Origin: Escherichia coli
Lineage (GTDB): Bacteria; Pseudomonadota; Gammaproteobacteria; Enterobacterales; Enterobacteriaceae
Length of the DNA: 64,000 nt
Reading direction: 5' to 3' (one strand)
NCBI RefSeq assembly: GCF_011045215.1
Contig: NZ_CP049202.1
Made by a program: the position numbers and the translations under genes. The notes under the pieces were generated by a model. The model saw only the letters and a program-made list of their open reading frames with translations. It ran no database searches and had not been told where the DNA came from. Positions 22,866 to 23,035 of this stretch are shown one piece after another; within the stretch, counting starts at the first letter, position 1, and the number at the start of each line of letters is the position of its first letter.

Positions 22866-23035
22866 ACTAAAAAAGGTCATAAAAACAAAAATCAACACAA
22901 AACGCGTAAAAGCAATTAGAACAAAATAACAAAAAAAAAACACTAAAAAGCAAAAGTAACCAAAAAAACACGACACCGCAGAATAAAAAATCAAAACACA
23001 CCCAATAAACATTCTTTTTTATTTTTTACCCCCCC
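22866..23035. repeat. A/C-rich low-complexity tract with A10 (22931-22940) and C7 (23029-23035) homopolymers
   Basis: About 170 bp almost devoid of G and T on the plus strand, between the PapB-like gene and the IS2 end. Confidence 0.6.

Follow-up and report, generated by a model that had tools for sequence, protein, structure and literature searches.

The window analysed here, a stretch of 64,000 nucleotides of Escherichia coli DNA, harbours a fimbrial operon whose genes all lie on the minus strand in the order PapB-like regulator, PefA-like subunit, PefC/AfrB-type usher and chaperone, and which includes two additional open reading frames (ORFs) beyond those four genes. Their coordinates, together with those of all features lying in and around the A/C-rich tract upstream of the regulator gene, are given in Table 1. 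The regulator comprises 79 amino acids when read from the ATG at 22750, the start codon which gene callers chose in other assemblies. It is short compared to its relatives (about 90 to 100 amino acids), and RefSeq annotates it in E. coli C5 plasmid B as a protein of just 50 amino acids (12158-12310 in L001), the DNA being identical. In tblastn searches the subunit proved to be about 34% identical both to PefA and to F18 FedA; its score against the NCBIfam PefA model amounts to 88.5 bits, which is under the cut-off of 227 bits. The usher also matches the Pfam families Usher and PapC_N. Directly after the stop codon of the PefA-like gene, the spacer between the subunit and the usher gene (21658-21804) contains a GC-rich hairpin (ATTCCGGGG...CCCGGAAT) which resembles an attenuating terminator.

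Among the downstream ORFs tested (108, 186 and 281 amino acids) no co-regulator of the PapI/FaeA/PefI family was detected by HMM. None of the three matches any Pfam or NCBIfam family, the 108-residue ORF not even at E ≤ 10. The C-terminal part of the latter, which is located at the distal end of the operon (16142-16468, minus strand), looks by eye like a winged helix of the PapI/PefI kind; as a candidate PapI-like gene it was rejected since it finds no HMM support at permissive thresholds. A further candidate, an ORF of 66 codons present upstream in those copies of the locus which are free of IS2, was discarded as it looks like IS debris.

On its upstream side the operon is bordered by an IS2 fragment whose genes are oriented towards the tract and the fimbrial operon. 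For the ORF at 23138-24043 the NCBIfam model "IS2 transposase TnpB", whose cut-off is 597, gives a score of 724.7 bits. Judged from the sequence, the left end of the element appears to be missing: its orfA ORF encodes only 92 amino acids, and the left inverted repeat was not seen near its expected position at 24458. The fragment adjoins a transposase gene of the IS110 family (24633-25697). Further upstream, on the same strand as the operon, two genes are found, one of which encodes an AraC-family regulator (27396-28241) and the other a further PapB-family protein (26872-27138). IS2, the IS110-like element and a toxin-antitoxin pair of the ParE/RelE type (25970-26541) lie between this block and the operon, and the block as a whole (26872-28241) is inverted relative to C5 plasmid B. 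Upstream of the second PapB-family gene a T/G-rich tract is absent (maximum A+C 0.55).

Table 1. Coordinates of the fimbrial genes and of the features in and around the tract (window numbering).
Feature	Position	Strand	Basis or remark
Fimbrial chaperone gene (PapD-type)	18528..19238	minus	Pfam PapD_N and PapD_C
PefC/AfrB-family usher gene	19231..21657	minus	NCBIfam NF011760, 979 bits (cut-off 752)
PefA-like major fimbrial subunit gene	21805..22353	minus	tblastn and NCBIfam
PapB-family regulator gene	22511..22750	minus	Pfam PapB, E = 1.7e-24 (tested as 22511-22765)
71-aa Phe-rich ORF	22797..23012	minus	judged a composition artefact
Stem-loop CAUCUGUCG...CGACAGGAUG	22799..22830	minus	between tract and PapB-like start codon
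TATAAA, candidate -10 hexamer	22842..22847	minus	position only, putative, by analogy with pef
Tract as reported	22866..23035	minus (coding strand)	A+C 0.776 on plus strand
Tract core	22881..23011	minus	maximal-scoring A/C segment, about 85% A+C on plus strand
24-nt imperfect direct repeat, proximal copy	22887..22910	minus	family D1, coding strand ...GTGTTGATTTTT
A10 (T10 on coding strand)	22931..22940	minus	9 or 10 among isolates
24-nt imperfect direct repeat, distal copy	22986..23009	minus	coding strand ...GTTTTGATTTTT
C7 (G7 on coding strand)	23029..23035	minus	upstream edge of tract
AT-rich, non-skewed native sequence	23036..23127	minus	between tract and IS2; kept in IS2-free copies
Perfect A/T palindrome TTTTTTATAAAAAA	23051-23064		just upstream of tract
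A8 run	23079-23086		just upstream of tract
IS2 fragment	23128..24279 (left limit approximate)	minus	right inverted repeat 23128, orfB 23138-24043

The tract and its variation among isolates

A conspicuous strand asymmetry is observed upstream of the regulator gene. On the plus strand the tract contains 95 A, 37 C, 27 T and 11 G, while windows of 170 bp taken over the 64 kb show a mean A+C of 0.51 with a standard deviation of 0.05. The maximum of 0.788 is reached at 22845-23014, and the runner-up window attains just 0.676. The tract thus represents the most extreme strand skew within the 64 kb (AT skew up to 0.70), which confirms the preliminary description of a strand-asymmetric, A/C-rich tract upstream of a PapB-like gene. 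The skew it had described is real; its wording that the DNA is almost entirely A and C goes too far when applied to the whole span since positions 23012 to 23028 are T-rich. As the genes of the operon lie on the minus strand, the tract is T/G-rich on their coding strand. The GC content ranges from 0.27 to 0.32 over 22800-23150 versus roughly 0.5 in the flanking IS2. Overall the tract is roughly 72 to 76% AT (0.72 in its most skewed window), so that for at least 100 bp beside the presumed promoter the AT content is far above the genome average. It spans 116 to 285 bp upstream of the ATG at 22750, or 101 to 270 bp if counted from the TTG at 22765, and ends 92 bp from the right end of IS2. It contains dispersed low-complexity repeats and no tandem repeats, matches no Rfam family, and a folded RNA structure is not supported within it (z = +0.68).

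The stem-loop between the tract and the start codon of the regulator gene has a stem of 9 to 10 bp and a loop of 9 nt and is followed by UGUGUUUU. The RNA fold of 22740-22840 yields -26.9 kcal/mol (z = -1.96), and the element could be either a leader hairpin or an operator palindrome. One 10-mer of it, AAACATCTGT, also occurs directly before the -10 hexamer of Salmonella PpefB. On the opposite side of the tract, a local peak of predicted curvature near 23057 coincides with the A/T palindrome and the A8 run; the inverted repeats I1 and I5 belong to this non-skewed segment (23036-23127). The closest PapB homologue, encoded on an E. coli plasmid from a hen (L015), is preceded at a comparable offset by a repeated TTTTTTATAAAAA motif, to which 21 of 23 positions match.

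The tract and the 774-bp regulatory region were used as queries in megablast and blastn searches of the PLSDB plasmids and of complete genomes of E. coli. Just one complete, near-identical record with the region was retrieved from PLSDB and RefSeq E. coli, namely plasmid B of E. coli C5, from a cow, which is free of IS2 and whose homology to the window stops at 23126. The exact operon proteins, in turn, are present in about 280 to 330 blocks of the assembly collection. For comparison we used the 23 copies in which the run is readable, i.e. the window and 22 further copies from independent assemblies. A scan of JGI metagenomes for the pattern flanking the run yielded a single chance match that is unrelated. 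Apart from the runs, hardly any variation is seen over the 23 copies in the tract or in the adjoining 92 bp, which provides but weak evidence of constraint as the whole locus is equally invariant. Four copies, including the window, share one and the same IS2 junction. The remaining 19 lack IS2 and carry other sequence beyond window position 23127; they match the window up to 23126/23127, and identity breaks exactly at 23127/23128. Although the right end of IS2 lies so close to the tract, the notion that the latter is associated with this element, be it as a target-site relic or as a part of it, can practically be dismissed, given that the identical tract, together with the 92 bp beyond, is present in all 19 copies free of IS2. 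Rather than being insertion-sequence debris, the tract is part of the fimbrial locus.

The A10 run is the only run of A or T in the whole window with a length of at least nine. The coordinates previously given for it and for the C7 run are correct; the accompanying statement that the tract ends in homopolymer runs does not apply to A10, which is located in mid-tract. The C7 run is not unusual, being one of five such runs in the window. Comparing isolates, as had been suggested at the outset, indeed reveals a difference in length: the A run measures 9 in 18 of the 23 copies and 10 in five (the window, L007, L010, L036 and L039), and other lengths were not seen. Since length 10 occurs on at least three haplotype backgrounds and the IS2-bearing subgroup shows the lengths 10, 9, 9 and 10, this site must have changed repeatedly. 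The C run measures 7 in 13 copies and 8 in a single one (L032), and in the other nine it is substituted by GGGGGAT (coding strand), an allelic pattern which does not bear out the proposal of C7 as a slippage site. The nearby T7 and A8 runs are constant among the copies, and two A/T runs in the subunit-usher spacer, near 21679 and 21743, differ by 1 to 2 nt among isolates. The most plausible reading of the A9/A10 polymorphism is that the longest run undergoes ordinary slippage during replication, and the overall pattern of the runs fits length-dependent slippage or occasional assembly error. A change in the length of the A run may shift the helical phasing by one base pair.

Comparison with other PapB-family loci

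The comparison set comprised 15 other plasmid loci of the PapB family, including Salmonella pef, fae- and daa-like loci, Pef-like loci, a YadA-like adhesin locus and orphans. In 12 of these 15 the region upstream of the PapB-family gene contains, at about -100 to -380, a 130-bp window whose T+G content on the coding strand amounts to 0.69 to 0.94, whereas the reverse skew occurs in none of them (maximum A+C 0.62) and three loci are devoid of a T/G-rich tract. With a T+G content of 0.85 at -261 to -131 the tract under study shares polarity and position with the 12 relatives. Comparable skew is found at 0.009% of the positions in the rest of the window and at 0.16% in the rest of those loci. The A run does vary among isolates and equivalent strand-biased tracts do exist at related loci, which speaks against the IS2 target relic considered in the preliminary description. 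Beyond composition, local alignment with block-shuffle nulls revealed no homology between the tract and the 15 upstream regions (z ≤ 2.8), the sole exception being a 23-nt A/T match with L015 that is situated outside the tract. On the basis of these sequences, the strand-specific T/G composition appears to be a family signature of the PapB-type operons sampled, although one that could reflect shared mutational bias or decay instead of function as the tracts are similar in composition only.

Six of the loci (L003, L016, L017, L018, L023 and L024) possess a canonical pair of GATC boxes, CGATCTTTT...AAAGATCG, spaced by 102 to 104 bp, and in five of them, Salmonella pef included, the segment between the boxes shows a T+G content of 0.73 to 0.89. 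The core of our tract resembles, in position as well as in composition, this region between the GATC boxes, which in pap-type switches contains Lrp sites. At the present locus no GATC occurs anywhere in 22300-23130, and the canonical box pair is thus absent. The two copies of the 24-nt direct repeat within the tract are 75% identical, lie 99 bp apart and each contain TGATTTTT on the coding strand. Their spacing and motif are reminiscent of the GATCTTTT boxes of pap-type switches (102-104 bp); whether one regards them as decayed GATC boxes or as chance matches in low-complexity DNA is a matter of speculation.

Salmonella pef shares with our locus the layout of PapB-family regulator, major subunit, PefC-type usher and chaperone, a coding-strand tract at about -124 to -254 which is T/G-rich (0.75) and roughly 73% AT, and even an artefactual Phe-rich ORF in the equivalent place. 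The subunit proteins are 34% and the regulators about 51% identical, while the two tracts show no sequence homology. In contrast to our locus, pef contains three GATC sites (-217, -113 and -101), its tract is flanked by a box pair spaced by 104 bp, and its -10 hexamer is a consensus TATAAT, compared to which only TATAAA with a poor -35 element is present here. PpefB is activated by Dam and Lrp and silenced by H-NS, StpA and Hha. In the pap, daa, fae and clp-like switches, as at the present locus, the PapB-family gene is located downstream of the regulatory region, and T-rich DNA of the same polarity is found where the Lrp sites are situated between the two GATC boxes (PMC11316696), a likeness which is one of composition. 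Unlike these switches, our locus lacks GATC boxes and a divergent regulator gene upstream, where only IS elements are present, and a PapI-family gene was not found among the ORFs tested. Three of the sampled loci, on E. coli plasmid pRHB10-C05_2 (L002), on a plasmid of ETEC4074 (L022) and at the YadA-like locus of pRM14516 (L019), have no GATC boxes nearby and in this respect resemble the one studied here; they carry a T/G-rich tract (0.77 to 0.94) directly upstream of their PapB-like gene. The first two also encode PefC/AfrB ushers; in both, an AraC-family gene immediately precedes the tract, while at our locus its homologue (27396-28241) is separated from the operon by IS2, the IS110-like element, the toxin-antitoxin pair and the second PapB-family gene.

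Promoter, protein binding and DNA curvature

A scan for sigma-70 consensus promoters yielded no match over threshold on the minus strand, i.e. that of the operon, and the position of the promoter is therefore assumed by analogy. In Salmonella the -10 element of PpefB lies 70 to 75 nt and the transcription start 62 nt upstream of pefB (PMC6844306). The candidate -10 hexamer of the present locus is located 92 to 97 nt upstream of the regulator ATG. Its last base (22842) is polymorphic among the copies, giving rise to either TATAAA or TATAAG. This A/G exchange splits two haplotype groups, with A being present in all four IS2-bearing and in several IS2-free copies. A crude position weight matrix of our own, which ranks the known -10 element of Salmonella PpefB first, proposed TTGCTT-18-TATTTT (in T9 copies), a promoter with the T run in its spacer; we rejected it as 78% of composition-preserving shuffles score at least equally high.

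Binding of nucleoid proteins to the tract is plausible by analogy with characterised relatives. The DNA upstream of Salmonella pefB serves as the principal target for H-NS, StpA and Hha, and the AT richness at PpefB has been proposed to favour the oligomerisation of H-NS (PMC6844306). In pap, Lrp sites 2 and 5 contain the two GATC sites, and the intergenic region is bound by H-NS over its entire length (PMC11316696). Both PapB and FocB act as oligomers when binding to AT-rich motifs (PMC5956150). Within the tract there is no match with up to two mismatches to the high-affinity H-NS motif (TCGATAAATT-like), the nearest one being located at 22762-22771, and over the whole window such matches occur at chance level. 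The PapB binding motif, as Xia and colleagues reportedly described in 1998, displays a T/A periodicity of 9 bp.

It had also been considered that the tract might bend the DNA. We predicted its curvature using a wedge-model script of our own with parameters after Bolshoy et al. (1991), for which in-phase and out-of-phase synthetic controls behaved as expected. The end-to-end ratio of 0.857 corresponds to roughly the top 3% of the window, yet equal curvature is reached by 21% of the shuffles matched in composition, and the T runs within it recur at about 13.5 bp and not at 10.5 bp. Over 13 loci the phasing of T runs gives a weak family-mean signal at 10.25 to 10.5 bp (mean z about 0.8 to 1.4). 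Intrinsic bending is accordingly but weakly supported, since the predicted curvature is modest and would be accounted for by composition.

Interpretation

We regard it as probable that the tract constitutes regulatory DNA lying upstream of a Pef-like fimbrial operon of the chaperone-usher type, which is carried on a plasmid. It would act as a T-rich, G-punctuated upstream protein-binding region of the operon promoter, with Lrp, H-NS and PapB-type proteins as presumable ligands and the core as the proposed binding region. If the promoter is placed as in Salmonella pef, the tract would extend from roughly -30 to -200, with the A run near -100. In Dam/Lrp-switched relatives the T/G segment corresponds to the DNA between and around the two GATC boxes, on which Lrp, H-NS and PapB-type proteins assemble in pap. 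The tract would represent a control region of the pap/pef type that lacks GATC. Silencing and activation of the operon would most probably involve H-NS and StpA, presumably as silencers, together with Lrp and the PapB-like regulator as modulators, without Dam-dependent epigenetic switching. Which proteins bind, where the promoter is placed and what regulatory outcome ensues we infer from these relatives.

Alternatively, the tract may be a functionless compositional relic, i.e. what is left of a pap-type switch region after the loss of its GATC boxes, or else the outcome of mutational bias, retained merely on account of its location between promoter and upstream mobile-element junk. Consistent with this, GATC sites, a significant promoter, a binding motif and homology beyond composition are all absent, the locus is located amid IS debris (IS2, IS110-like and ISL3 elements as well as an IS21 fragment), and the PapB-like protein, with its 79 residues, is short. 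Yet, in the absence of constraint it would be difficult to account for a strand-specific skew that recurs at a like position in 12 of the 15 diverged relatives, and the equivalent Salmonella region is functionally important (PMC6844306); the near invariance of the tract over the 23 copies, runs aside, points the same way, albeit weakly because the whole locus behaves alike. We therefore consider such a relic unlikely. The absence of GATC boxes could also be cited in favour of a slipped-strand rheostat or phase switch, in which T9/T10, perhaps together with G7/G8, would alter a promoter spacer or the phasing between bound protein and RNA polymerase, so that mutational switching of fimbrial expression stands in for the lost Dam/GATC switch. 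Homopolymers can mediate phase variation at promoters, as exemplified by the poly-C run of Bordetella fim and the spacers of Neisseria porA and opc. With these systems our locus shares a 9- to 10-nt homopolymer upstream of an adhesin operon whose length differs between isolates; unlike theirs, however, the run lies outside any supported promoter spacer, varies by ±1 only and has no known link to expression. In favour of such a switch are the alternation of 9 and 10 within a set of 23 near-identical copies, which involves at least three haplotype backgrounds and includes the group sharing the same IS2 junction, and the best candidate of the weight matrix, which holds the run in a spacer of 18 that T10 would extend to 19. 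But that candidate is not significant against block shuffles, and the consensus scan offers no promoter on the operon strand. The invariance of the nearby T7 and A8 runs, together with the wobbling of other long runs in the pefA-usher spacer, is the pattern expected of neutral slippage or assembly error, and a change of 1 bp near -100, the position suggested by analogy with pef, is unlikely to operate as an on/off switch. The slipped-strand phase variation envisaged in the preliminary description thus seems quite improbable to us. A combined scheme, according to which in this GATC-less Pef-like lineage the T/G array nucleates a complex of Lrp and PapB-type proteins and the T9/T10 run (with G7/G8) serves as the heritable switch, is a long shot; if true, a mutational phase switch acting via the helical register between complex and promoter would have taken the place of an epigenetic one.

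As the remaining alternative, and in our view a highly improbable one, the ORF could be a genuine gene for a small membrane protein rich in Phe (71 residues, or 79 where a haplotype offers an ATG), with the G and T runs in its 5' part perhaps acting as a switch. Such a gene could be argued for by a sense-strand ORF with a common stop codon in all haplotypes, by the 79-residue form having been called by a gene caller in GGGGGAT/T9 assemblies, by the charged N-terminus, two hydrophobic segments and basic C-terminus of that form, and by comparable Phe-rich ORFs upstream of Salmonella pefB and in L002. Against it, the ORF matches no Pfam or NCBIfam family, no Shine-Dalgarno sequence is seen before the ATG at 23012, its codon positions show no heterogeneity in base composition (chi-square p = 0.70, a test of low power), and in most assemblies no gene is called at this site. 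In addition, its N-terminal third (the first 25 to 30 residues) varies among isolates which are more than 99% identical. The ORF has 71 codons in G7/T10 copies, 67 from a GTG in L030 (GGGGGAT/T9 with extra substitutions) and 79 from an ATG in the other copies with the GGGGGAT allele; in G7 alleles the long form is halted by ATG GGG GGG TAA, and the difference between T9 and T10 shifts the frame. The scarcity of A on this strand leaves two sense frames almost free of stop codons at the same time. We hence judge the ORF, as far as can be read from its sequence, to be a composition artefact, in agreement with its earlier designation as spurious.

Regarding the tract as regulatory DNA, we place a little-studied and rarely annotated Pef-like operon on E. 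coli plasmids, one of them from a cow, in the PapB-regulated family, with an odd-looking tract as its native control region. A T/G-rich tract upstream of 12 of 15 PapB-family genes, which in most sampled relatives with a canonical pair fills the interval between the GATC boxes, is modestly useful for the annotation of fimbrial control regions and could become a general sequence marker of PapB-family control regions; such tracts also account for the spurious Phe-rich ORFs which are sometimes called upstream of these genes. The region is an ordinary regulatory one that leaves current understanding unchallenged, and it is of mild interest only for its homopolymer polymorphism and for the family-wide strand signature. 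For the biology of this fimbrial operon, the composition of its control region together with the lack of GATC sites suggests nucleoid-protein control that may operate without Dam methylation.
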